Shown piece after piece: positions 20,607 to 42,017 of a DNA stretch of 48,636 nt (positions within the stretch are counted from its first letter, which is position 1; the number at the start of each line of letters is the position of its first letter). The position numbers and the translations under genes were made by a program. The stretch covers positions 1 to 48,636 of the forward strand of contig DASSMA010000083.1 in the NCBI GenBank assembly GCA_035689115.1. Reading direction: 5' to 3'. This stretch comes from Acidimicrobiales bacterium (GTDB lineage Bacteria; Actinomycetota; Acidimicrobiia; Acidimicrobiales; GCA-2861595). The notes beneath the pieces were generated by a model. The model saw nothing but the letters and a program-made list of their open reading frames with translations, was not told the origin of the DNA and did not search any database.

Positions 20607-20906
20607 ATGGCCGAGTGGGTGTACTTCCTGCACGCGCCGAGGGACGACTTCGGCGCCACGATGACCGCCGAGGAGCAGGAGGCGTTCGACCGCCATTTCG
20701 AGTGGCTCCGCCGCCTGCACGGCGACGGCGTGCTCATCCTCGCCGGCCCCACCCTCGGGCGGGTGAACACCGGCATCAACGTGTTCGAGGCCCCCGACGA
20801 GGCGGCGGCCCTGCGGATCTTGCAGGAGGACCCGGTGGTGGCCGGAGGGTTCGCCCGGGGCGAACTGCGACCGTTCCGGGTCAGCCTGCTGCGGGGCCGG
20901 GAGTAA
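20607..20906 (+). CDS. YciI-like protein
   Basis: 'MAEWVYFLHAPRDDFGATMTAEEQEAFDRHFEWLRRLHGDGVLILAGP' matches the family. Confidence 0.7.
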   Translation: MAEWVYFLHAPRDDFGATMTAEEQEAFDRHFEWLRRLHGDGVLILAGPTLGRVNTGINVFEAPDEAAALRILQEDPVVAGGFARGELRPFRVSLLRGRE

Positions 20907-22062
20907 CGCCCGGGCAGGCCTTCGAGCCGAACACGGCGTGGCCGGACCAGGTCCGCCCGCCGTCGCCGGTGCGGTAGAGGCACCCGGCCCGGTCGGCCGT
21001 CGTCGAGTACGCCCACAGCACCGACCGGTCCAGCACGCCCACGTCGGTGAAGGCGGCGGGGAGGGTGGTGCGGCTCCACGCCGTGCCGCCGTCGCCCGAG
21101 TACTCGACCACCACCGGGAGCCCGCCGGCGACCAGGAGATGGCCGGCGTCGAGCACGGTGACGGCGCTCACGCCGTGGGGGAAGCGGTGGGTCGGCGCCC
21201 AGGTCCGGCCGCCGTCGACGGTCGCCCACAGGGTGCCGGCGCGGGCGTCGTCGGTGGCCGTGACCGCCCAGCCGTGGAGGCGGTCGGCGAAGGCGAGGTC
21301 GCGGAGGAACTCGTCCTCGGCGCCGATGAGCCTGGCCACCGTCCAGGTGGCGCCGCCGTCGGCGGTGGCGGCGATCTGGCGGTCGGCGTCGGCCACCCAG
21401 CCGTGGAGGGTGTCCACGAAGCGCACCGTCGAGGCCAGGGGCAGGGCCGTCGGTGACAGGGCGGTCCACGTCCGGCCGCCGTCGGTGGACCGCAGCACGG
21501 CGGGCGCCCCGCCGGTGTCCCCGGCGGCGAAGCCCCGCCGGGCGTCCAGGAAGTACACGTCGTGCACGAAGGTGGCCGGGTCGGGCAGCCGCGCCGCCCT
21601 CCAGGTGGCGCCGCCGTCGGCCGTGAGGAGGACCCGGCCGGCGGTGCTGCCCGTGACCGCCGCCCAGCCGTGGGCGTCGTCGACGAAGAAGAGCGCCTCG
21701 GTCGCCCCGATACCTGCCAGACAATGGGAGGTCCACGTCGCCCCGCCGTCGCCGCTGCCGACCAGGACCGGCGCCCCCGCCCCCGCCCCTTCCAGCTCCA
21801 CCCAGACGCCCGAGGGCCGGGCCCGGATGGCCTCCACGCCCTTCAGCCGCCCGCCATCCGGCACCGGGCAGGGCTGGGTGACGCCGGCCGACCGCGCAGG
21901 CGTCGTCGCCGGGGCGGCCGGGGGCTGGGCCGCTGTCGGCGCGGTGGTGGGCGCAGGCCGCCGGCTGCCGGCGTTCAGGCGCTCGGCCTTCCCCGGGCCG
22001 GAACATGCGGCGCCGAGCAGCGCGGCCGCGGCCAGGACGGCGGCGACGGAGCGGGTGCCCAC
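20881..22062 (-). CDS. Lipoprotein with BNR/Ycf48-like beta-propeller repeats
   Basis: The lipobox is 'LLGAACSG'. Repeated 'DGGATW / DGGRTW / DGGTAW' motifs are present. Confidence 0.75.
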   Translation of the reverse strand: MGTRSVAAVLAAAALLGAACSGPGKAERLNAGSRRPAPTTAPTAAQPPAAPATTPARSAGVTQPCPVPDGGRLKGVEAIRARPSGVWVELEGAGAGAPVLVGSGDGGATWTSHCLAGIGATEALFFVDDAHGWAAVTGSTAGRVLLTADGGATWRAARLPDPATFVHDVYFLDARRGFAAGDTGGAPAVLRSTDGGRTWTALSPTALPLASTVRFVDTLHGWVADADRQIAATADGGATWTVARLIGAEDEFLRDLAFADRLHGWAVTATDDARAGTLWATVDGGRTWAPTHRFPHGVSAVTVLDAGHLLVAGGLPVVVEYSGDGGTAWSRTTLPAAFTDVGVLDRSVLWAYSTTADRAGCLYRTGDGGRTWSGHAVFGSKACPGVTPGPAAG

Positions 22063-22128: not shown

Positions 22129-23613
22129 TCAGCTGTCGGCGCCGTCGCCCTTGGCCCGGGTCACCACCAGGTCGCCCACCTTGCGGCCCATGGTGAGGCC
22201 GGCCTCGTCCATGGGGAAGTGGATGCCGGCCCAGATCCGGGACTCGGCCTGGGTCTCGGCCCGCTGCTTGAACTCGGCCGCGTGGGACGGGAACAGGTAG
22301 GTCATCACCTGCTGGACGGCGCCGGCGTAGGTGGAGCTGCCTGACACGTAGGCGGGGAAGCGCGGGGTGTCGATCACCGGCTTGAAGTTCTTGTCGATGC
22401 CCAGGTCGTGGATGGCGTTCTCGGGGCGGGGCATCCAGTAGGTGAACTTGGTGTCCCACGACGCCACGCCGGCGTCGGCCAGCGCGACGGTGACCAGCGC
22501 CATGGCCCGCACCGCCCGGGGAAGGGTGAGCCGCTGGCCGTCGACCAGGTCACCGTTGACCGCCTTCAGGATGTCGCCCTGGGAGGTGTCGGCGACGATC
22601 CCGGCGGGCAGCGGCGTGCCGGCCAGGCCGGCGTAGAAGTGCACCGCCTGGAGCTGCTCGGGGGTGAGGTGGTCCTTCCCGTCGGCGACCTGCTTGGCCT
22701 CGGCGATGTACTCCGGGCTGCCGTAGGCCGGCGGCGGCGGGGCCCGGAACTGGCTGCCCGACGTCATGACCCATGTCTTCCACGTGCCGGCCAGCGGTTC
22801 GGTGGGCGGCGAGCTCGGGTCGGCCCCGGGCGGCGGCTCCCAGAAGGCGGGGCCATGGCCGATGCCGGGCGGGCGGGTGCCGTCCCACTTCTTGTCGGAG
22901 CCGTCGGTCTTGGCCCGGGCGATCACCAGGTCGGCGACCTTGTGGCCCAGCTCGAGGCCCGCTTCCACCTCGCTGCGGGTGTTGACCCCGGCGTAGACCC
23001 GGCTGTCGGCCGCCTGGTCGGCCAGCGCGTCCATCTTCGCCTGGGAGGCCAGGTTCGGGTACAGGTAGGCGAGGACGCGGGCGGCGGCCCCGGCGATGGT
23101 GGCGTGGGCGGACGGGTAGGACGGGTCGGGGCCCGGGCCGATCATGGTGTCGCTGTTCACGTCCGGCGGGTCGACCTTGTACTTGTACTTCCAGTACCAC
23201 GCAGCGGTGACGGCGTCGTTCATGGCCACGTGGAGGAGGGCGTAGTTCCGGGACGACAGCGGCGGGTTCTTGGCGCTCTTGGAGACCAGGTCCAGCTCGG
23301 TGTCGGTCCACGGCTTGGTGGGCAGGGGGCCGTTGAACTTCTGCACCATGGCCTTCACCTCGGCCGTCCGCTTGCCGGCCAGGTCCTTCAGCTCCGCCTG
23401 GTCGGCCTTCGCCTTGGCCGACCCCGGCTTGGGCGGGGCCGGTACCGCCAGCTTGGCCGGCGAGCCGATGACCCACGTCTTCCACTGGCCGGCGGTGGGC
23501 TCGCTGCCGTCGGCGGCCGCCCTGGCCCCGCTCGACGACCCGCACGCCGCCAGCAGGGGCAGCACGAGGGCGGCGGCCAGGCCGAGCGTGGCCAGTCTCC
23601 TGCGAGATGTCAT
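22129..23613 (-). CDS. PAP2-superfamily / vanadium-haloperoxidase-like lipoprotein with two PAP2-like halves
   Basis: The lipobox is 'LPLLAACGSS'. The first half has 'YPSAHAT' (motif 2) and a degenerate motif 3. The second half has 'SRIWAGIHFPMDEAG' (motif 3, SRxxxxxHxxxD). The ATG at 23613 overlaps the upstream stop as ATGA. Confidence 0.7.
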   Translation of the reverse strand: MTSRRRLATLGLAAALVLPLLAACGSSSGARAAADGSEPTAGQWKTWVIGSPAKLAVPAPPKPGSAKAKADQAELKDLAGKRTAEVKAMVQKFNGPLPTKPWTDTELDLVSKSAKNPPLSSRNYALLHVAMNDAVTAAWYWKYKYKVDPPDVNSDTMIGPGPDPSYPSAHATIAGAAARVLAYLYPNLASQAKMDALADQAADSRVYAGVNTRSEVEAGLELGHKVADLVIARAKTDGSDKKWDGTRPPGIGHGPAFWEPPPGADPSSPPTEPLAGTWKTWVMTSGSQFRAPPPPAYGSPEYIAEAKQVADGKDHLTPEQLQAVHFYAGLAGTPLPAGIVADTSQGDILKAVNGDLVDGQRLTLPRAVRAMALVTVALADAGVASWDTKFTYWMPRPENAIHDLGIDKNFKPVIDTPRFPAYVSGSSTYAGAVQQVMTYLFPSHAAEFKQRAETQAESRIWAGIHFPMDEAGLTMGRKVGDLVVTRAKGDGADS

Positions 23614-24572
23614 GCGGAGCTCCCTTGGAGGACCGACGACCGGACGGTCCCGTCGCCGTTGTGCCACTGCTGGGGGAACGGGCGGGACGACGCCACGATC
23701 GGCTCGCGCTCCCAGCGCGTCGGCACCGGTGCGGCCACCGCCCGCACCCGGTCGAGGGCCAGGAGGGCGAGGAGGGCGACGGGGAGGGCGTAGTCGCCGG
23801 CCCGCTCGACGAACTGGAACAGGGGCTGGCCGGCCAGCGGGCGGAGCAGCTCCGTGCCGAGCTTCCACGCCAGCACGAACACCAGCAGTTGGCGGACGGG
23901 AGCCAGGAGGACGGCGAGGCCGAGCGCCACCTCGAACCAGCCGACCCAGGCGGCCAGGTGCAGGGTGGCCGACGTGTCCCGGGCGATGCCGGCGACGGCG
24001 AAGAAGTCGCCCCATTCGGCCTTGTGGGCCCAGATGCCGAGGCCGCCGTGGCCCACGAGCAGCAGGGCGATGGTCACCCGGGCGACCCAGGCCACCTGGC
24101 CGGCCCGCACGGCGTCGAGGGACGGCGACGGCCGCACGGTACCGAACCAGGAGGACCAGGACCGCGAGGGGAGGCCGGCCAGGACCAGGAAGGCGAGAGG
24201 GCCGCCGTAGTTGGCGCCTCGCTCGACCAGCTCGAAGGCGGACTCCCCGACCAGGGGGCGGAGGACGGCGGTGAAGAGGCCCCAGAAGGCCATCCACACC
24301 AGCGCCGCCCGCATGGGCCGGAACAGCACCAGCAGCGCCATGGAGATGTCGACGGTGCCGGTGACGTAGAAGAAGACGTGGTTGGCGGCGTGCTCGGACA
24401 CGCCGAGCAGCCCGTAGTAGGGGAGCCACGCCCTGGAGTGGGCCAGGCCGGCCATGCCGTGCCCGATGAACTCCAGCGCCACCCCGACGCGCAGGGCCCA
24501 GTACAGCACCGTCGCAGGCGTGGGCGCCGGGCGCTCGGTCACAGAGAAGGCGGGCAGGGCGACCAACGACAT
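23610..24572 (-). CDS. Integral membrane protein with an internal duplication (DoxX-like 4-TM module x2)
   Basis: The two halves share 'RPLVGESAFELVERGANYGGPLAFLVLAGL' and 'RPLAGQPLFQFVERAGDYALPVALLALLAL'. The start is the ATG for 'MSLVALPAF'. Confidence 0.65.
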   Translation of the reverse strand: MSLVALPAFSVTERPAPTPATVLYWALRVGVALEFIGHGMAGLAHSRAWLPYYGLLGVSEHAANHVFFYVTGTVDISMALLVLFRPMRAALVWMAFWGLFTAVLRPLVGESAFELVERGANYGGPLAFLVLAGLPSRSWSSWFGTVRPSPSLDAVRAGQVAWVARVTIALLLVGHGGLGIWAHKAEWGDFFAVAGIARDTSATLHLAAWVGWFEVALGLAVLLAPVRQLLVFVLAWKLGTELLRPLAGQPLFQFVERAGDYALPVALLALLALDRVRAVAAPVPTRWEREPIVASSRPFPQQWHNGDGTVRSSVLQGSSA

Positions 24573-24618
24573 CGGTGGTGAGGGTACGAATCGCCCGTAA
24601 GCAGGCCGTAAGTGGTGT

Positions 24619-27164: not shown

Positions 27165-27908
27165 TCAATCGTCACGCAGCGAGCAGGCGATGCGAACTGC
27201 CAGTCGGGTCGACGAACTCGGGGGATCGTGTTGGACGCCTGGACAGAGCAGGGCCTCCTCACCGCATCCCTGCCACGGGACGAGGGACGCCGCTCCACCC
27301 CGCCGCGACCTGCCGACTCCGGGCACACTCGGCGCACACGCCTCTCCCACCTGCAAGAGCCCGACGCCTCTGGCGTCGAGCATTCCGGGGACGTCCTCGG
27401 CGACGCGAACGCTCGAGGCCAGCACATCGCCGACAAGCGACTCGGGTTCCAACGATTCCACGTGAAGGGCGTCCCAGGTCGGACGGTACAGGTACTCCCA
27501 CTCGACCTCGGTGACGCAACGAACGTTCAGGCGTTCGCACAGCAGGCGAGTCTCATCCTCGTCCAGCATGGCGGGGGCGAGCCAGGAGTCAGGCTCGGCA
27601 ACGCGTGCTCGCAACTGGTCAATGTCGAAGAGGCCGAGCGGGTCGAGAGCCTGGTACGAGACGGGGAAGCACGAGACGATGAAATCCGAGACGACGACGG
27701 ACGCGCTTGGAGGAAGGTTGTGCTCCTCGAGACCGACCAGATCGACGTACGGATCCAGGAATGCTCGTTCCTCGGCGGTCACCCCGACCATGGCCTTGCC
27801 GCCGTGGACGGCGACGAAGATCGCGTCCACATGCGTGGAGCGGAGGTAGTCGTGCTCGCCTGCACGGCCAGCGTCCTGGACGAGGGAACGCAGAAATGAG
27901 GTCGTCAG
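27165..27908 (-). CDS. Hypothetical protein; probably the C-terminal continuation of 27905..28954 after a -1 frameshift near 27918-27920
   Basis: No canonical start follows the upstream stop. Restoring one G in 'ctgggtcc' joins the frames to read '...DPDELGSGPLTTSFLRSLVQDAG...'. The region is lower in GC. Confidence 0.4.
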   Translation of the reverse strand: MTTSFLRSLVQDAGRAGEHDYLRSTHVDAIFVAVHGGKAMVGVTAEERAFLDPYVDLVGLEEHNLPPSASVVVSDFIVSCFPVSYQALDPLGLFDIDQLRARVAEPDSWLAPAMLDEDETRLLCERLNVRCVTEVEWEYLYRPTWDALHVESLEPESLVGDVLASSVRVAEDVPGMLDARGVGLLQVGEACAPSVPGVGRSRRGGAASLVPWQGCGEEALLCPGVQHDPPSSSTRLAVRIACSLRDD

Positions 27909-28954
27909 AGGTCCGGACCCAGCTCGTCGGGGTCTGTGACGCCTTCCAACCAGGCCGTGAAGGCTCGGGCTGAAGGCGGCAGTCCGTAGGACCGTAGTGC
28001 GGACACCTCCTGCGGGGGCGGCCGCCATGACGCCAGTGGCGGGACGAGCGCCTGCAGACTGGCCACCGCGTCCGGACCCAGCGCGGTCGACCGCAGCCGG
28101 CGCGGTTCGCCGAACACGAGGCGCAGGTAGGTCCGCAACGGGCCGGTGCCGAGCAGTTCACCCCGGGACACCGCACCGAGCAGCTTGGCGGCCGTGTACC
28201 GGCGCAGGTGCGCCGGTACCCGGCTGAGCGCCCCCTTGCAGACGGCGCTGGGCTCCTCGCCGATGAGGAAGTCGCAGCGGGTCAGCTCGTCGCCCCCCTC
28301 GACCGACTCGAACGCCCGACACAGCTCGTCGACGCACGCCGGCGAGGCGTCGTCGGGCCTGAAGCGCAGCGCTGCCATTGATTGCCCGAATCGACGCAGC
28401 GGGCCCCCACCGGACGGTCCTCTCGGGGCGCTGAGGTCCGAAGGGAGTGTGCCCAAGATGACGGCGGCCAGCCAGGCGGTGCACTGCTCGACTTCATCCG
28501 TGTTCTCCGTGCCGGCGCCGATCTGCTCCAGGACGGCATGCTCGGCGCATCCCGTCCAGGCAAGCACGACGAGTGCGGCACGCGAAACGTTCCGGTCGCC
28601 ATCTGCCAGCAGCGGTATGAGCCGAGAGTGTTCGGCAACAACGGCGTCCCATGAGGCAACCTCCTCGGGAAGAACCTGGTGTGCACGCTGCACCCGCCAG
28701 TCCAACTGATCGCCCATTGTCCCGATGGCGGCGCACCGGATCAGATGCAAGATGTCGAAACGGTACGGGGCCCGGCTGTCGAGAACAGCGTCGACGAGGA
28801 GGGGAACGGTGGGCGGCGTGGCGGTACAACGATCACCTTGAGGGGTGATGGCCCAGTACAAGCCGTCGAGGCTCGCATCCACGAGCGCGGGATCCCTCAG
28901 GCCGTCGAGCAGCTCCGGGATTTCGCTCCCCCCGATGTCCTCCCAGCGCGTCAC
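27905..28954 (-). CDS. Hypothetical protein; probably the N-terminal part of one ~595-aa gene continued in 27165..27908
   Basis: GTG start. The sequence is protein-like and helical-repeat-like ('IPELLDGLRDPALVDASLDGLYWAITPQG...'). Confidence 0.5.
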   Translation of the reverse strand: MTRWEDIGGSEIPELLDGLRDPALVDASLDGLYWAITPQGDRCTATPPTVPLLVDAVLDSRAPYRFDILHLIRCAAIGTMGDQLDWRVQRAHQVLPEEVASWDAVVAEHSRLIPLLADGDRNVSRAALVVLAWTGCAEHAVLEQIGAGTENTDEVEQCTAWLAAVILGTLPSDLSAPRGPSGGGPLRRFGQSMAALRFRPDDASPACVDELCRAFESVEGGDELTRCDFLIGEEPSAVCKGALSRVPAHLRRYTAAKLLGAVSRGELLGTGPLRTYLRLVFGEPRRLRSTALGPDAVASLQALVPPLASWRPPPQEVSALRSYGLPPSARAFTAWLEGVTDPDELGPDL

Positions 28955-35297: not shown

Positions 35298-35343
35298 GTC
35301 CTGAGCATAGCGTGCCGCGGGCGATTGAAATCTAGTTGCGCCG

Positions 35344-35359
35344 ATCCAGACGTCTGGAT
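35344..35359. promoter_or_regulatory. 16-bp perfect palindrome ATCCAGACGTCTGGAT in a divergent promoter region (candidate operator)
   Basis: It lies in a locally AT-richer intergenic region between 34830..35297 (-) and 35411..37501 (+), 52 nt upstream of the SPFH ATG. Confidence 0.5.
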
Positions 35360-35410
35360 ACGCTTATCCCGATAGATAGCCGGACAGGGGTTCCGGCAGA
35401 AAGAGAAGAG

Positions 35411-37501
35411 ATGCAGACCTCCATCGTGGCCCTCGCCGTCCTGGCGGCGGTGACGATCCTCGTCCTCGTCAAGTCGGTCCACCGCATCGGCCCTGCCGAG
35501 GTCGGACTGGTGACGAAGAAGCTGGGGTTCAAACGCCTCGACGACGACAACCCGATCGCCTTCGCCGGCGAGGCCGGCTACCAGGCGACGCTGCTCATGC
35601 CCGGCCTGCGGTTCCGCCTCTGGCCCGTCCACTCCGTGGCCCGGCATCCCTGGGTGCAGGTGCCGGCGGGCGAGATCGGCGTGGTGATCGCCCAGGTCGG
35701 CGAGCCCCTACCCATCGGCGCCAAGAGCGCCGCCTACCGCTCCGAGTTCGGGAGCTTCTCCGACATCGAGACGTTCCTGCGCAACGGCGGCCAGAAGGGC
35801 GTCCAGCGCCCGGTGCTGCCCCCGGGCACCCTGGTGCCGATCCACCCCGTCGGCTTCCTCGTGCTCACCTCGCGCGAGGTCTTCGGCATCCCGGTGGCCC
35901 CCGAGCTGGCCACCATGAGCGACGACGGGGTGCTCTCGCCCGAGTCCTTCGGCCTCGCCCCCCAGCAGCTCCAGGTGGTCGTGATCGCCCCGCAGGGGGA
36001 GTCCGACGTGATCGGCGTCGTCACCACGCTCGAGGGCACGCCGGTGGAGAAGGGCGACATCGCCAGCCGCCTGGGCGGGTTCGACGACGTGGTGGCCCTC
36101 GAGTCGGGGCCGGCCACCGACGCCGAGCTGATCGACACACTCCTCGGCTCGAAGAACGACCTCCACAACAACTACCAGGACTTCCAGGCGTTCCTCGACG
36201 CCGGCGGCCGCATCGGGCTTCAGCACGACCCGCTCCTGTACGGCGCCTACCTCCTGAACCCGTTCCTCGTGCGGGTGGATCTGGTGCCCATGCTGGTGGT
36301 CAACCAGGGCGAGGTGGCGGTCGTGAAGGGCTTCGTGGGCCTGCCCACGCTCGACACGTCCGGCGCCGACTTCAAGTTCGGCTCCATCGTCCGCCCCGGC
36401 CACCGCGGCATCTGGCAGGAGCCGCTGCGCACCGGCAAGTACCCGCTGAACCCCCGTGTCTACGCGGCCGAGATCGTGCCCACCTTCATCCTGACCCTCA
36501 ACTGGGCCAACGCCCAGAGCCAGGCCCACGACCTCGACACCCGGCTGGAGCCGATCGTGGGCAAGAGCCGTGAGGGCTTCGTGTTCACCATCGACCTCCA
36601 GGTCCAGATCCACGTCTCCGACACCCGGGCGCCCAAGGTGATCTCGATGGTCGCCACCATGCAGAACCTGGTCAACGAGGTGCTCCAGTCGGCGGTGGGC
36701 AACCACTTCCGCAACACGCTCCAGAACCTCGAGGCGGTCCGCTTCATCGAGACCCGCCAGCAGGTGCAGGAGAGCGCCTACGACGCCGTCCGCGCCTACC
36801 TCGCCGCCTACGAGGTCGAGACGCGCGGCGTCTACATCCAGGACGTCGTGTTCCCGCCGGAGCTGGTCGAGGTGCTGACGAAGCGGGAGATCGCCAACCA
36901 GGAGCGCACCACCTACGCCGAGGAGGAGCGGGCGGAGACGGCCCGTGTCGAGATGGAGAAGGCCCGGGGCACGGCCGACATGCAGGCCGAGCTGGCCGCG
37001 TCCCAGGTGTCCGTCGACATCAACGCCAACCGGGCCCGGGCCCGCGAGGCCGAGGCCCGGGGCGAGGCCGCCTTCGTGCGGACCACCGGTCGGGCCGAGG
37101 CCGACCGCACCGAGGCCATCGGCCTGGCCGAGGCCCACGCCACCCAGGCCCTGGGCCTGGCCCGGGCCGCCGGCTACGAGGCGCAGCGGGCGGCCATCGG
37201 CGAGGGCGGGACGGCCCTGGTGGCCGTCACCACCGCCATCGCCGAGGGTGGGGTCGACATCATGCCCGACATCCTCGTCACCGGCGGGGGCGGCGCCCTC
37301 GACGGGCTGGCCGCCACCCTCATGGGCATGTTCCGCACCAACGGGAAGCCGTCCGCGCCCGCCCCGGACGGGGCAGCCGCCGAGCCGGTGGACGAGGTCC
37401 TGGAGGCGCCGGCCGAGGACGCCGAGCCGGCCCTGGAGCTGGTGCCGGCGGGCGACGACCACCAGAGGGGGCGCCGGCGCCGGCCGCCGGCGGAGTCGTA
37501 G
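35411..37501 (+). CDS. SPFH/band-7 (flotillin-like) membrane protein with a long Ala/Glu/Arg-rich coiled-coil C-terminus
   Basis: A purine-rich SD precedes the ATG at 35411. The N-terminal TM is 'IVALAVLAAVTILVLV'. The SPFH-like core is followed by 'EEERAETARVEMEKARGTADMQAELAAS...ARAREAEARGEAA' repeats. Confidence 0.7.
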   Translation: MQTSIVALAVLAAVTILVLVKSVHRIGPAEVGLVTKKLGFKRLDDDNPIAFAGEAGYQATLLMPGLRFRLWPVHSVARHPWVQVPAGEIGVVIAQVGEPLPIGAKSAAYRSEFGSFSDIETFLRNGGQKGVQRPVLPPGTLVPIHPVGFLVLTSREVFGIPVAPELATMSDDGVLSPESFGLAPQQLQVVVIAPQGESDVIGVVTTLEGTPVEKGDIASRLGGFDDVVALESGPATDAELIDTLLGSKNDLHNNYQDFQAFLDAGGRIGLQHDPLLYGAYLLNPFLVRVDLVPMLVVNQGEVAVVKGFVGLPTLDTSGADFKFGSIVRPGHRGIWQEPLRTGKYPLNPRVYAAEIVPTFILTLNWANAQSQAHDLDTRLEPIVGKSREGFVFTIDLQVQIHVSDTRAPKVISMVATMQNLVNEVLQSAVGNHFRNTLQNLEAVRFIETRQQVQESAYDAVRAYLAAYEVETRGVYIQDVVFPPELVEVLTKREIANQERTTYAEEERAETARVEMEKARGTADMQAELAASQVSVDINANRARAREAEARGEAAFVRTTGRAEADRTEAIGLAEAHATQALGLARAAGYEAQRAAIGEGGTALVAVTTAIAEGGVDIMPDILVTGGGGALDGLAATLMGMFRTNGKPSAPAPDGAAAEPVDEVLEAPAEDAEPALELVPAGDDHQRGRRRRPPAES

Positions 37502-37618: not shown

Positions 37619-38953
37619 CTAGCCGACTCTCACACCGGCCACGCCGCCGTCGTCGAGGCGCGTGGCCCAGACGCCGCCGGTCACCGCCACCGGCGGGAGC
37701 TCGAGGTCGCGGCTGGCGGCCAGCGCCAGGCGCGGGCCCGCACCCTCCACGACCATGGCGCCGTCGGCCGCCCGGAGCAACCTGAGCCAGTCGTCCGACG
37801 TCGCCACGAGCACAGCTCCCTCACCGGTGGCCACCAGGCGGACGAGCCGGCCCGGGATTGGCGGGGTGGTCCAGCGGACGACGCCGGTGCGGGCGTCGAG
37901 CGCCTGGACCGCACCGCCGTTCGTGGCCACGGCGACGGTCCGGTCGCCGACGGCGACGATGTCACGGGCGTTCGGCTGCTCCCACAGCGTCCGCCCCGAG
38001 GCGGCCTCGATGCCGGTCGGCACGCCGCCGACCGCCACCACGAGGACGTCTCCGGCGGCCACGGCTGTCGCCGGCAGGTCGGGAAGGGGCCGGGTCCAGA
38101 GAACGGCCCCCGTCGTCCGGGCGATGCCGGCCAGGCGCACCGGCTCCGATGCAGCCGCCGGCGGGCCGGCTCCTGACGCGCCACGGTCGGACTGCACCAC
38201 GATCACCTCTGCCGTGACGGCGACCGGGCGGGGCACGGCGATGTCGACCTTGGCATCGGTCACCGTCCGCCCGGTCCGGTCGAAGGCGACGACCGCCCCG
38301 CTGCCACTCGGCGAGCTGCCGCCGGCCACCAGGAGGCCGCCCTGGGCGAGGACGTAGGGGAACCGGCCGGCGTCCCGGCCGGTGTCGAGCCGCCTTCCCT
38401 CCGCCGCCGACCGGACGGCGATCGCCGTTCCTCCGAGCAGCACGCTCCCGTCGCCGGCGGCCAGCGCCCCCCACCGCACGTCCTCGGAGCCCGTCCAACG
38501 TCGCCGCCCGGTGGCGGCGTCGAGGGCGACGACCCGCGGCCACCCCTCGAACCCGCTCAGCACGACGGTGCCGCCGGAGGCGGCGGCCGCCGAGAACGAC
38601 CCGCGGATGCTCCATCGCAGCCGGCCCCCGGTATCCACGGACGCGATGCAGCCGCCGGCGGCGACGACGAACCCCCCGTCCACCGCCAGCGGGTCGAACG
38701 GCACGTACGTGGATCCGGCGGTGGACCGCACCGTCCACGCCACCTGACCGCGCGCCGGCGTCACCTGGAGGCCTGGGCATCCGCCCGCACCGAGCCGGGC
38801 CGTCGGCGGCCGATCGTCCAAGGGGTGCGGCCCGAGGCGGACGAAGCCGAACCCCAGCCGCAGCAGCACCAGCACGACGACACCCAGCACCCCGACGAGG
38901 CGGCCATGGTGTCGGTCAAACGCTGCCTTCCCCGCCGCCCCCACCTCGACCAT
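37619..38953 (-). CDS. Membrane-anchored PQQ-like beta-propeller repeat protein (BamB-like fold)
   Basis: The N-terminal TM is 'LVGVLGVVVLVLLRLGF'. Repeated 'G.V.A.DA.TG...W' blades follow. Confidence 0.7.
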   Translation of the reverse strand: MVEVGAAGKAAFDRHHGRLVGVLGVVVLVLLRLGFGFVRLGPHPLDDRPPTARLGAGGCPGLQVTPARGQVAWTVRSTAGSTYVPFDPLAVDGGFVVAAGGCIASVDTGGRLRWSIRGSFSAAAASGGTVVLSGFEGWPRVVALDAATGRRRWTGSEDVRWGALAAGDGSVLLGGTAIAVRSAAEGRRLDTGRDAGRFPYVLAQGGLLVAGGSSPSGSGAVVAFDRTGRTVTDAKVDIAVPRPVAVTAEVIVVQSDRGASGAGPPAAASEPVRLAGIARTTGAVLWTRPLPDLPATAVAAGDVLVVAVGGVPTGIEAASGRTLWEQPNARDIVAVGDRTVAVATNGGAVQALDARTGVVRWTTPPIPGRLVRLVATGEGAVLVATSDDWLRLLRAADGAMVVEGAGPRLALAASRDLELPPVAVTGGVWATRLDDGGVAGVRVG

Positions 38954-39028
38954 GGTGGCAGGCCACGAGGTCGAAGAAGCCGCAACGCGCCGAGGCGGCG
39001 CCCCTGCGGGCGCCGCCTCGGGTGTCTG

Positions 39029-39919
39029 TCAGATGCAGAGGCCGGGCAGGAGGCAGAGCTTCTTGGAGCCCGCCGGCGGCCCGTTGATGCCCGGGGCGCT
39101 GGGCGACGGGGGCGGAGGGGCCGGGGGCGGGTCGAGGAACCACTCGCTGCCGTCGCCGCCCGACAGGTAGGGGTGCTGGAGGCCCTTGCGCTGGCCCGCC
39201 GTCATGACCGGCGCCTCCCGGGCGGCGAAGGCGAAGGCTTCCTGGATGGACACCTTGCCGTCGTGGTTGGCGTCGCCCCGACCCTTCAGCATCCCCTCGT
39301 TGGCCAGCAGGCCGGTGAACACCGACATCTGCCAGTCCGGGCGCTCGTAGCCCTTCTCCGTCTCCTGCGAGGAGGCGGTGAAGAGCCGGCGGGGCCCACT
39401 GAGCAGGCCCTCCTCGAAGCCGGCCGCCTCGCAGCCGGAGATGTTGGTCCAGAGCCATCCCCGGATGCCGTCGAGGCGCTGGGCCAGCTCCCGGTCGGAG
39501 ATGACGTTGGTGGCGTCGTAGGGGACGATGAACTCGTCCTTGTCCTCGCCGTCGTGGTCCGGATCGCCGGTGCGCTGGTAGACGTGGCCGGAGTAGTGGA
39601 AGACCGTGAACGAGCCCTCGCTCGAGCGGTCGGCCAGCCACTGGATACCGGCCCGGATGTTGGCCGCCGTGGCCGCCGCTCCGGTGAGGACGCGGACCTG
39701 GTCGTCGGACCAACCGGCCCGACGGAACACCTCGCGCATGGCGGTGGCGTCGCCGGCGCCGCCCACGGGGGCGGCCGGCCGGCCCTTGAAATGGGCGCTC
39801 ATGCCGATGATGAGCGCTGACCTGTTGGTGGAAGCAGTCGGGCCCGCTTTCGCGGGCCCGACTGCCAGGACACTGAAGAGCAGTGCAACTGCCACCGCCC
39901 CCATGGACCGCCGCTTCAT
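39029..39919 (-). CDS. Secreted caspase-family (peptidase C14, orthocaspase-like) protein with a Pro-rich, Cys-containing C-terminal tail
   Basis: The signal peptide is 'MKRRSMGAVAVALLFSVLAVGPAKA'. 'ALIIGMSAHF...FTVFHYSGHV' carries the catalytic His box, 'NISGCEAAGF' the candidate Cys box. The start lies 7 nt after the upstream gene stop. Confidence 0.7.
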   Translation of the reverse strand: MKRRSMGAVAVALLFSVLAVGPAKAGPTASTNRSALIIGMSAHFKGRPAAPVGGAGDATAMREVFRRAGWSDDQVRVLTGAAATAANIRAGIQWLADRSSEGSFTVFHYSGHVYQRTGDPDHDGEDKDEFIVPYDATNVISDRELAQRLDGIRGWLWTNISGCEAAGFEEGLLSGPRRLFTASSQETEKGYERPDWQMSVFTGLLANEGMLKGRGDANHDGKVSIQEAFAFAAREAPVMTAGQRKGLQHPYLSGGDGSEWFLDPPPAPPPPSPSAPGINGPPAGSKKLCLLPGLCI

Positions 39920-39926
39920 GGTGCTG

Positions 39927-41729
39927 CTATCTCAAGGCCCGGCGGACCCGGCGGAGGCCGAAGGCGCCGCCCAGCATGGCGAGGCCGGTGAGGGCCATGG
40001 CCGTGCCGTTGGAGCCGGTGCGGGGCAGCTGCTCCACGCCGGTGGAGGGCAGCTGGCCGCTGACCGTGGGCACCGTGACCGTGACCGACCCGGTGATCGG
40101 CACCGTGATCTTGGCGCCGCCCTGGGCCGACCCGGTGGCGCAGCTCCCGGTGGCGGTGGCGTTGTTGGTGAACGTCCCGCCCTTGGAGCTGGTGGGTATC
40201 TGCACGGCTATCGACACCGATTTACTGGCGTGTGGACCGATGGGCCCGATGTCGTTCCAGGTGACCGGGTTGGTGGCCGAGTTGGCCGCCGGGTTGGTGC
40301 CGGTGATCGTGTACTTCACGCCGCTGGAGGTGGTGATGGTGTCGACCACCTTCACGTTGGTGAGGTCGCAGTCGGCGAACGGGTTGGTGACGGTGATGTT
40401 GTAGGTGAAGCTCTCACCGGGGTTGACGGTGGTCTTGTCGGCCGTCTTGGACACCGGGATGCTGCACTTGATGCCGCCGGCCGGGACCTGGGCCCGGGAC
40501 TCCATGTGGCCGACCCGCACGTCGAGGGCGTTGGCCACGGTGGGAGCGAGGGCGGTGTTGAGCAGCGTGACCCGCACCACGTCGACGGCGGCCGAAGCCG
40601 AGGTGCCGTCGCCGCCCTGGGTCGGGCTGCTGTTGGCGTCGCCGCCGATGGCCCGGGGATCTTCGCCCACCGCGATCTCGACGATGCCGGGCAGGCTCAC
40701 GACCAGGCCCTGGCCGCCGAGGAGCTGCTGGAGGGTGATCTCGACGGGCAGGCCGCCGAGGCCGGAGATGCGGACGACCGGGGTGGAGGGGCTGGTGGCG
40801 TCCGGCCCGTAGGTGACGTAGGACTGGCCCGGGACGCCGGTGGCCACGGTGCGCAGCCGCCACTCGCCGAGCAGCTCGATGGTGATCGGCGTGAGCGTGT
40901 TCTGGAGCAGCGTGACCGGGGCCACGGTCATCCGGGTCTCGGTCATGAGCCCGAAGTTGTCGCCGACCTTGTTGCCCTGGGCGTCGGTCTGCGGCACCAG
41001 CCGGGTGATCGACTTGCTCTGGGTGACGGAGCGGGTGGGATCCGGGGCGTCGACGGCGACCGCCGGGCCCGAGAAGGGCTGGTCGGCGCCGGTGGGGGTG
41101 CCGAGGTCGAGCAGCTGGGCGTCGGCGACGTAGCCGAGGCCGGTGCTGGCGTCCTCACCGAGGATGCAGGTGCCGTCGGCGTTGAACCGGGCCTGGGCCT
41201 GGCCCCTCGCCAGCGAGGCGTACGCCGCCGGCGGGATCTTGATCGGGCCGACCTGGTTGGTGATGAGGCCGGTGCTCGGCGGCGCCGAGGCCAGGGCCCG
41301 CTGGGCCAGCAGGATCTGGTTGGCGTTCACGTCGGTGGCGATGGTGGTGCCGACGCCCAGCTCGAAGCCGGAGCCGCGGCCGAAGCTGCGGTCACCCTTC
41401 AGGTTGGCGTCGAGCGTGGTGTTGGGCAGCTGGGGCTGGATGACCTGGCCCACCTCGTTGACGATGGTGCCGGCGGCCGCACCCGGGCCCTGGGTGATGG
41501 TGCCCGTGCCCTTGGAGGCGATCGAGGCGCCCGATTCGCTGACCTCGGTGTCGACGAGGCGGGTGCCGCCCACGTCGAGCGCACCGACGTGCACGGGGGT
41601 GCCCGTGCTGTAGCCGTTGTAGTTGGCGTCAGCCGAGGCGACCTGCGCCTGGGCTGGGCCCCCAACCAGCATTCCGGTCGTGGCGCCTGCCAGGAGCAGG
41701 CTCGCCACCAATGACAACCGTTTCTTCAC
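39927..41729 (-). CDS. Surface protein with DUF11-type repeat domains and a C-terminal LPXTG-like sorting signal
   Basis: GTG start with a GGGAAG SD. The signal peptide is 'LVASLLLAGATTGMLVGGPAQAQ'. A DUF11-like segment reads 'GESFTYNITVTNPFADCDLTNVKVVDT'. 'LPSTG..LPRTG' plus a hydrophobic stretch and an 'RRVRRALR' tail completes the sorting signal. Confidence 0.8.
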   Translation of the reverse strand: MKKRLSLVASLLLAGATTGMLVGGPAQAQVASADANYNGYSTGTPVHVGALDVGGTRLVDTEVSESGASIASKGTGTITQGPGAAAGTIVNEVGQVIQPQLPNTTLDANLKGDRSFGRGSGFELGVGTTIATDVNANQILLAQRALASAPPSTGLITNQVGPIKIPPAAYASLARGQAQARFNADGTCILGEDASTGLGYVADAQLLDLGTPTGADQPFSGPAVAVDAPDPTRSVTQSKSITRLVPQTDAQGNKVGDNFGLMTETRMTVAPVTLLQNTLTPITIELLGEWRLRTVATGVPGQSYVTYGPDATSPSTPVVRISGLGGLPVEITLQQLLGGQGLVVSLPGIVEIAVGEDPRAIGGDANSSPTQGGDGTSASAAVDVVRVTLLNTALAPTVANALDVRVGHMESRAQVPAGGIKCSIPVSKTADKTTVNPGESFTYNITVTNPFADCDLTNVKVVDTITTSSGVKYTITGTNPAANSATNPVTWNDIGPIGPHASKSVSIAVQIPTSSKGGTFTNNATATGSCATGSAQGGAKITVPITGSVTVTVPTVSGQLPSTGVEQLPRTGSNGTAMALTGLAMLGGAFGLRRVRRALR

Positions 41730-42017
41730 AGGTATCTTCCCTTCGCCGAAGACCCGACACGCCCGGCGCTGCCGGTTCTCTCGCTACGTCCGAGAGACGG
41801 CACCCACTGCGCCTTATGACGGTGATTGCCCGTTTTTCTTTCGTTCACGCCGGAATGGGCGTCCCATCCCTTTTTGCTCGACGCTGACGACATCCTGGCA
41901 CATCGGCGCACGACCTACCTAGTCCGTTGTCCCGTGGCGGGAATCGGCGCCTGCCCGCCACTGTTCTTGCTAGCATCACGCATAAGTTTCCTTCGTCCGC
42001 CCTAGTGAGGTAGCCCG

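Follow-up and report, generated by a model that had tools for sequence, protein, structure and literature searches.

A predicted exported caspase-fold peptidase encoded beside LPXTG surface proteins in a clade of Acidimicrobiia

We analyzed a stretch of 48,636 nucleotides (nt), further called the window, which is the complete metagenome-assembled contig DASSMA010000083.1 of an Acidimicrobiales bacterium (assembly GCA_035689115.1; contig G+C approximately 72%). The subject of this work is a locus of three consecutive minus-strand genes, encoding a surface protein of 600 amino acids (aa; SURF), a caspase-like peptidase of 296 aa (CASP) and a propeller protein of 444 aa (PQQ). A first-pass annotation, made from the sequence alone, had reported these genes at the coordinates in Table 1, with gaps of 7 nt after SURF and 75 nt after CASP. 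The map of open reading frames (ORFs) agreed, and both gaps had exactly these lengths. SURF and CASP are well supported as a bicistronic cell-envelope unit, in which an LPXTG protein and a caspase-fold peptidase both carry predicted Sec export signals.

Extent of the gene pair

A hairpin starts 8 nt past the CASP stop codon. Its GC stem is perfect over 14 bp, and the 87-nt stretch folds with -45.4 kcal/mol (z = -3.2). For want of a clear T-tract, the hairpin was passed over by the consensus terminator scan. In orthologous loci the gap between SURF and CASP was 5-14 nt (L001, L005, L006, L007, L009). Judging from the sequence, the SURF-CASP unit probably ends at the hairpin. We did not detect a minus-strand promoter upstream of SURF with a sigma-70 promoter scan. 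Heat-shock control (HspR/HAIR) from the intergenic region between SURF and clpB was considered and rejected, as no HAIR site was present within 3 mismatches.

The title of the first-pass annotation implied a surface-remodelling module of three genes, with PQQ as the third member. Its description of PQQ as a membrane-anchored beta-propeller was correct (PQQ_2, 63.5 bits, and an N-terminal hydrophobic anchor). The common strand, the 75-nt gap and the extracytoplasmic position predicted for the propeller are consistent with such a module. However, tblastn detected PQQ homologues in none of 153 related loci (80 from genomes and 73 from metagenomes), which were centred on CASP homologues; additional loci were collected through SURF and sortase homologues. 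In one syntenic locus (L001) CASP is 83% identical and the flanking genes are the same, but an SPFH gene directly follows CASP and there is no PQQ. The strong hairpin, too, lies between CASP and PQQ. Membership of PQQ in the conserved module was therefore ruled out, and the three-gene module, contradicted by these data, is highly improbable. On these comparisons, the PQQ gene is an unrelated passenger, and the propeller would have no part in the mechanism proposed below.

Table 1. Features of the SURF-CASP locus. Coordinates are those of the window; residue numbers refer to the protein named.
Feature	Coordinates	Strand	Evidence
SURF (gene 1), predicted wall-anchored surface protein, GTG start	39927..41729	-	ORF, Pfam, NCBIfam
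CASP (gene 2), predicted secreted caspase-like C14 clan CD cysteine peptidase	39029..39919	-	PF00656, AF2, Foldseek
PQQ, membrane-anchored PQQ_2/BamB-like propeller, outside the conserved module	37619..38953	-	PQQ_2
Spacer from SURF stop to CASP ATG, 7 nt, close enough for translational coupling	39920..39926	-	
Divergent intergenic region SURF/clpB, 288 nt, presumed promoter region	41730..42017	.	
GC-rich hairpin, probable terminator without clear T-tract	38990..39021	-	folding
SURF signal peptide, residues 1-28, VKKRLSLVASLLLAGATTGMLVGGPAQA then QV	41646..41729	-	read from sequence
SURF CLIPPER/DUF11 CnaA-like stalk domain, residues 426-528	40146..40454	-	PF01345, TIGR04226
SURF sorting signal, residues 560-600: LPSTG (560-564)-VEQ-LPRTG (568-572), hydrophobic stretch, RRVRRALR	39930..40052	-	
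CASP signal peptide, residues 1-25, predicted cleavage after AKA	39845..39919	-	read from sequence
CASP caspase/hemoglobinase-fold catalytic domain, residues ~33-260	39140..39823	-	AF2, Foldseek
CASP catalytic His112 codon (FHYSGH)	39584..39586	-	invariant
CASP catalytic Cys163 codon (ISGCE), E164 next	39431..39433	-	invariant
CASP DPDHDG loop, residues 119-124, DxDxDG-type putative Ca2+ site, then metacaspase-like DEFIVPYD	39548..39565	-	
CASP EF-hand-like loop DANHDGKVSIQE, residues 216-227	39239..39274	-	between predicted helices 200-211 and 225-239
CASP Pro-rich linker, residues 263-285	39065..39133	-	low pLDDT
CASP C-terminal Cys tail KKLCLLPGLCI: after a basic residue, two Cys with 4-6 hydrophobic residues between them	39032..39064	-	

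Predicted properties of CASP and SURF

CASP had been described as a secreted caspase-like C14 peptidase, and our analyses point the same way, to a C14-type peptidase of clan CD. The N-terminus (MKRRSMGAVAVALLFSVLAVGPAKA followed by GP) looks like a Sec signal peptide, and the N-terminal hydrophobic region was conserved in alignment A1. Peptidase_C14 (PF00656) matched with 44.7 bits (cut-off 21.4), covering the p20-like half only (residues 33-151). Sequence matches in the PDB were plant and yeast metacaspases, including metacaspase-9 and metacaspase-4 (best E = 6e-7). FHYSGH of CASP aligned with HYSGHG of metacaspases, and the Cys of ISGCE with the catalytic Cys of metacaspase-4. H112 and C163 fall on catalytic residues of metacaspase-4 and metacaspase-9. 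An AlphaFold2 (AF2) model obtained from 25 homologues (pLDDT 84.5, pTM 0.81) was compared with known structures by Foldseek and matched MALT1, Yca1, AtMC9, GSU0716, legumain and caspase-7 (E approximately 1e-10, TM 0.53-0.62, probability 1.00). According to the model, CASP is a complete caspase/hemoglobinase fold and more than a p20 fragment.

All the CASP motifs quoted in the first-pass annotation were found, namely FHYSGHV, NISGCEAAGF, the Pro-rich tail and the terminal KKLCLLPGLCI. A Cys/His dyad lost in homologues would point to an inactive caspase-like fold. We observed no such loss, as H112 was invariant in 149/149 loci and C163, together with E164, in 152/152. D57 likewise never varied (147-152 homologous loci). 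Since the dyad residues are invariant, CASP is probably not a pseudo-enzyme and is predicted to be catalytically competent.

A cell-death role has been proposed for cyanobacterial orthocaspases. CASP belongs to the same superfamily, and pseudo-orthocaspases are known (PMC6426788). An intracellular orthocaspase (programmed cell death, toxin-antitoxin control) or an inactive pseudo-orthocaspase is nevertheless hardly credible here, given the N-terminal signal peptide, the envelope context and the invariant dyad; further, the loci contained no NACHT, TIR or toxin-antitoxin neighbours. The intracellular cell-death role is contradicted by these data.

We take the acidic S1 pocket of metacaspases to be formed by the Asp of 'GCxND' and the Asp two residues before the Cys (D-x-C-H-S-G), with the roles presumed from Trypanosoma brucei MCA2. 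D57 of CASP aligned with the Asp of the 'GCxND' region, and basic P1 specificity is plausible from the alignment. About one third of the CASP family has the DPDHDG loop, as an insertion, and E129 and D135 were nearly invariant. In the EF-hand-like loop (DANHDGKVSIQE) the ligand positions were conserved in >96% of 152 loci.

A profile search of 1.84 billion representatives returned 120 clusters at E <= 1e-30, and 28,653 in the C14 superfamily at E <= 1e-3. By sequence, the CASP group is a small and distinct C14 subfamily, and its spread is limited to Acidimicrobiia and some metagenome-assembled genomes of Mycobacteriales/Frankiales. A 'caspase family protein' at NCBI has the same sequence as CASP (100% identity). 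CASP shows a weak local likeness to NF047832 (caspase, EACC1-associated type) over residues 34-112; membership in this family was rejected, with 20 bits obtained against a cut-off of 140.

Like the orthocaspases and metacaspase-like peptidases of MEROPS C14B (Microcystis MaOC1, Geobacter GSU0716, 3BIJ), CASP has a caspase/hemoglobinase fold, a His-Cys dyad in HYSGH and xxC contexts, the 'DE-x-IVP-x-D' segment, an equivalent of the 'GCxND' S1 Asp, and p20- and p10-like halves joined in one chain. It differs from the canonical orthocaspases in its predicted Sec export signal, in the EF-hand-like helix-loop-helix insert, in the Pro-rich linker with a short Cys or GLLGG tail, and in being operonic with LPXTG proteins. 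The Cys box is [SA]GCE[AS][AG]GF, whereas canonical metacaspases and orthocaspases have D-x-C-H-S-G.

SURF homologues begin with MKRRLSIVAS..., and the GTG at 41729 restores a matching N-terminus. The public model of SURF (581 aa, P0121) begins at an internal Met and loses the signal peptide. With an N-terminal signal peptide and a C-terminal LPXTG motif, hydrophobic stretch and basic tail, SURF shows the pattern of a sortase substrate. The first-pass annotation had listed LPRTG, a hydrophobic stretch and an Arg-rich tail. These were read in the sequence, and the LPXTG anchor model TIGR01167 scored above its cut-off (17.8 vs 15.9 bits). The motif is tandem, however, which corrects the single LPRTG reported earlier. 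A tandem ELP[AS]TG-x3-LPRTG was typical of paired SURFs, whereas solitary homologues had a single LPRTG or LAxTG.

The same annotation had also reported DUF11 repeats. DUF11 was present, but as a single PF01345 domain (34.5 bits vs cut-off 24.6, E = 2.7e-8, residues 426-528), so the repeats did not hold. This domain was recently renamed CLIPPER; it was shown to form stalks of surface adhesins, to be CnaA-like and to be stabilised by an isopeptide bond (bioRxiv 10.1101/2025.04.25.650565). SURF also matched the TIGR04226 isopeptide domain of NCBIfam (E = 4.4e-8). The isopeptide candidates K428 and D463 were invariant in alignment A3; the isopeptide Asn position (approximately 520) is N in the SURF of the window and mostly D in homologues. 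The AF2 model of SURF (pLDDT 84.4) was all beta and multi-domain. We did not obtain any family match for the N-terminal ~400 residues, and the multi-Ig-like structures that Foldseek matched in the PDB (TM 0.13-0.17) were too weakly similar to be informative. The full-length SURF homologues come to at least 534. SURF resembles the CLIPPER/DUF11 fibrillar-adhesin proteins (bioRxiv 10.1101/2025.04.25.650565) in its signal peptide, CnaA-like CLIPPER domain and LPXTG anchor. It differs from them in having one CLIPPER domain instead of a long tandem stalk, ~400 N-terminal residues without a family match, a tandem LPXTG motif and a peptidase gene in its operon.

Conservation of the pairing

We observed two kinds of loci in which an LPXTG gene accompanied the peptidase gene. 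In S-type loci (n = 21: the window, L001-L009, L014, L084, L090, L092-L099) CASP is immediately preceded by SURF, with both genes on one strand, and the usual gene order is purA-clpB, SURF-CASP, hspR-dnaJ-grpE-dnaK. In the T-type loci (n = 11: L010-12, L015, L017, L019, L022, L026, L100, L102, L105) this position before the peptidase gene, again on its strand, is taken by another LPXTG protein. This partner is ~400 aa long, rich in LLGGLLDGG repeats and ends with LP[RV]TGGLGVLP... (for example the upstream gene L019:8309-9793). T-type partners have a single LPXTG motif, and S-type partners have four invariant Cys residues. Altogether, the LPXTG gene was directly upstream on the same strand in 32/32 informative S and T loci. 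The S and T clades are sisters in the neighbour-joining tree of the peptidases, and their only partnerless members (L018, L023, L034) were all cut by contig ends.

Homology between the two partner families was rejected, as BLASTP and hhalign matched the LPXTG anchor alone. Since the families share only the anchor, the constant feature appears to be a wall-anchored partner and no particular passenger domain. In the closest relatives the two genes were kept as same-strand neighbours with gaps of 5-14 nt, as expected for a conserved pair. The first-pass annotation had suggested mapping C14-DUF11 pairs across Actinobacteria, and a pairing as wide as this was not borne out. The pairing was confined to one clade of Acidimicrobiia, and most of the CASP family and most SURF homologues were solitary.

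These solitary members bear on an alternative, namely co-expression only. Here, CASP would be a general extracellular, envelope-tethered protease (nutrient scavenging, turnover of envelope proteins, defence) that does not act on SURF, and SURF an independent adhesin or binding protein; the promoter would be shared since the surface requires both. This would agree with the position of most CASP family members alone among housekeeping genes, with a Cys tail and catalytic residues that are equally conserved in unpaired clades, and with SURF homologues that occur without the peptidase. On the other hand, co-regulation poorly explains why all 32 S and T loci keep an upstream LPXTG gene despite a differing partner family. 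We regard co-expression only as somewhat unlikely.

Neighbours of unpaired CASP genes encoded FtsH-like, GGDEF, AspRS, KARI, ECF sigma, ExoVII and ABC permease proteins. These neighbours show no common theme, and a shared partner in unpaired clades was therefore rejected. A 235-aa gene downstream of a solitary SURF homologue (L082) was considered as a degenerate caspase and rejected, as it showed no similarity.

Several loci were arranged in other ways. In L027 (6291-9957) a CASP of an unpaired clade is followed by a CAP/cysteine-rich secretory protein (PF00188) and then by a convergent SURF-like LPKTG protein. In L066 (7387-10029, minus strand) and L074 (6352-8616, minus strand), both of the Mycobacteriales clade, LAATG-anchored proteins of 754-880 aa are divergent from the CASP homologue; these proteins had no Pfam match. 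A third arrangement was seen in L115 (374-3159), where the genes for a sortase and for an LPRTG protein of 335 aa share a strand and diverge from a CASP homologue of 45% identity. Locus L001 (DASSMJ010000019.1) is labelled Solirubrobacterales yet is syntenic with the window (77-95% protein identity over eight genes), and one of these two assignments is probably mistaken.

Sortases, shared tails and the proposed role of CASP

The first-pass annotation had noted no sortase in the window. This held for the whole 48.6 kb, as a six-frame TLxTC scan, tblastn with the sortase of a relative and Pfam searches of ten further ORFs were all negative. The TLxTC scan missed the TIFGCHP-type sortase of L003, which was later seen by Pfam, and the search was repeated by tblastn. 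This sortase (L003:1718-2620, minus strand; PF04203, E = 4e-26, catalytic TIFGCHP) comes directly after clpB, with purA on its other side, at a distance of 2.6 kb from SURF-CASP. Close homologues were found 45 nt after clpB and divergent from SURF-CASP (L090:7688-8524 and L091:4480-5316), and the same clpB-sortase arrangement was present at L089:2785-3543, on a contig that starts at clpB and leaves the pair outside view. The catalytic motif of this subfamily is T[IL]F[GA]CHP, and some members have a lipobox-like N-terminus. Further, housekeeping-type sortases lie 1.2-1.9 kb from unpaired CASP homologues in L062 and L080. In the former (L062:629-4135) the homologue is located in the conserved actinobacterial pabA-sortase neighbourhood, with genes for a small membrane protein and an SCP2-like protein between it and the sortase gene.

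The L003-type sortase ends with a Thr-rich linker and PCLLCGLLGK. We compared the tails that follow the TTTTT linker in 120 sortase homologues and observed few types, of 8-12 residues. By eye, ~30 were Cys tails (CLLCGLLGK, CTLCLP, CSKICLRP), ~25 were of the KKGLGGLLGG type and ~30 of the SLIPRIGG type; an automated pattern flagged 21 Cys tails. In the CASP family, Cys tails occur in the S clade and in most of the unpaired clades of Acidimicrobiia, the T clade has GLLGGLLGGLLG, and the Mycobacteriales/Frankiales clade is tailless. Thus, the Cys and GLLGG types are common to both families. No Pfam or NCBIfam model was found for the sortase and CASP tails. A CASP-like Cys tail also ends a 389-aa protein without Pfam match (L037:313-1482, plus strand; ...NTPPCILTMCRADR), and from its sequence such a tail may mark further envelope proteins.

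In the T clade (L010-L012, L015, L017, L019, L022, L026) the CASP tails are GLLGGLLGGLLG-like and the LPXTG partner carries LLGGLLDGG repeats. That both proteins carry the LLGG motif may stem from an interaction, from a common localisation or from local drift of the sequence.

The tails may also be read as docking elements, with the LPXTG protein serving as a display scaffold that anchors CASP, itself devoid of a covalent anchor, in the wall through a disulfide or through strand or repeat complementation. The GLLGGLLGGLLG-type tails opposite LLGGLLDGG-rich partners would fit this, as would the two Cys of the S-type tail and the four invariant Cys of S-type partners. However, the same Cys tail is present in partnerless clades and on sortases, hence it is not partner-specific, and we find a scaffold very unlikely.

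It is also conceivable that CASP acts on the sorting signal itself, as a sortase-pathway accessory or a transpeptidase (cutting one of the tandem LPXTG motifs, clearing membrane remnants or performing transpeptidation). The LPXTG anchor is the sole feature common to both partner families, paired S-type partners have the tandem motif, tail types are shared with the sortase family, a sortase occupies a syntenic site in some relatives, and sortase genes lie near unpaired homologues (L062, L080, L115). Moreover, clan CD includes enzymes that process C-terminal sorting signals, namely PorU of the type IX secretion system, the GPI8 transamidase and legumain ligases, which are transpeptidases. CASP resembles these in its caspase-like fold and Cys-His dyad and, presumably, in acting at the surface on proteins with C-terminal sorting signals. 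They belong to C25-like and C13 families, unlike CASP, which is C14, and the LPXTG motif is already served by the sortase of the lineage. As genuine sortases exist, a replacement would be needless. T-type partners have only one motif, most homologues have no sortase-pathway neighbour, and no sign of transpeptidase chemistry was seen in the sequence. A role of this kind is distinctly unlikely.

We tentatively propose, with limited confidence, that CASP is an envelope orthocaspase-like peptidase which cleaves the co-expressed wall-anchored protein at the sortase site. After export, the short hydrophobic Cys tail on the Pro-rich linker would hold CASP either on the outside of the membrane or in the inner zone of the wall. 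The occurrence of the same tail types in a sortase family suggests that CASP and the sortase are at the same site. At the membrane/wall interface CASP would cleave SURF, probably in a Ca2+-dependent manner. Such a cut may lead to maturation of the N-terminal region of SURF, or it may fall in the linker around LPSTG-VEQ-LPRTG and release SURF.

Release of the partner would have a functional analogue in Clostridioides difficile, where the secreted protease ZmpI/PPEP-1 is encoded beside the sortase substrate CD2831 and cleaves and releases this adhesin from the wall (PMC4591827). Both systems have a protease gene beside a gene for a sortase substrate. PPEP-1 is an M34 zinc metalloprotease of unrelated fold, whereas CASP is a C14 cysteine peptidase. 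The C. difficile system is c-di-GMP-regulated and its cleavage is experimental, while SURF-CASP is known from genes and the likeness is a functional analogy.

A number of observations weigh against cleavage of the partner by CASP. The position two residues before the catalytic Cys was Ser in 83 and Ala in 69 of the 152 loci and never Asp, and with the S1 Asp replaced in this way, Arg/Lys specificity is uncertain. A conserved basic cleavage site in the partner linkers was sought and rejected, as none was strictly conserved. T-type partners can carry LPVTG, and LPRTG is common in unpaired SURF homologues too. No LPXTG or sortase-pathway gene was present within 1.5 kb in approximately 100 of the 153 CASP-family loci, so the basic function of the family would be independent of an LPXTG partner. 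Likewise, there are solitary SURF homologues of 45-56% identity (L081, L082, L083, L086, L087, L088), and the close ones (50-56%; L083, L086, L087, L088) imply that SURF can do without the peptidase. The CASP tail is too short for a transmembrane helix. Four sortases were found in 1.61 Mb of CASP-centred sequence, compared with ~0.9 expected for a 3.5-Mb genome with two sortases (P ~0.014), a modest or weak enrichment for which P varies between ~0.01 and 0.05 with the number of sortases assumed per genome. The readings of substrate and localisation are guilt by association.

A broader proposal, which we consider unlikely, is that the sortase pathway of Acidimicrobiia has a second dedicated enzyme in the caspase-fold peptidase, which trims or releases LPXTG proteins and is colocalised with the sortase through very short C-terminal tails of a class not recognised before. 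These tails would be [K/R]-C-(hydrophobic)4-6-C or [K/R]-GLLGGLLGG after a Thr/Pro-rich linker, and the tandem LPXTG motif would possibly be the cleavage site. If this were true, bacterial caspase homologues would gain a new extracytoplasmic role and a new localisation signal would be defined.

Bacterial caspase homologues are numerous, and their discussion is almost all about intracellular roles in cell death and stress. Probable extracellular bacterial metacaspases have been noted in surveys without an assigned function (PMC3501461), and a full-text literature search for a connection between orthocaspases and LPXTG proteins gave no paper. The locus described here is a concrete and testable pairing, in which an exported orthocaspase-like enzyme, predicted to be intact, is genetically locked to wall-anchored proteins throughout a clade. 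The shared C-terminal tails and the synteny provide a second link of CASP to sortases. If CASP does cleave its partner, a substrate class would be defined for the first time for a bacterial caspase homologue outside the cell, and there would be a second, mechanistically different case of protease-controlled release of a sortase substrate. The shared tails may be a new localisation device in an uncultured and environmentally abundant class of actinobacteria.

Other genes of the window were also noted. Upstream of the pair, on the opposite strand, lie clpB, purA and purD, and downstream of the three-gene stretch are an SPFH/Band-7 gene and a SpoU methylase gene. The SPFH/Band-7 protein (35336-37501, plus strand, 721 aa) is extended by a long segment at the N-terminus and has an acidic/basic tail at the C-terminus, and it adjoins the pair in L001 as well (91% identity). 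The ORFs at 22408-23793 and 23607-24581 (both plus strand) had no family match. Between 26000 and 29000 the G+C falls to ~0.68, compared with ~0.73-0.75 elsewhere; the ORFs of this stretch (27165-28028 and 27905-28954, both minus strand) had no Pfam match, and the stretch may be non-coding or of foreign origin. At 20881-22062 (minus strand) the window encodes a BNR/Asp-box, Ycf48-like beta-propeller protein, which together with PQQ makes two propeller proteins.

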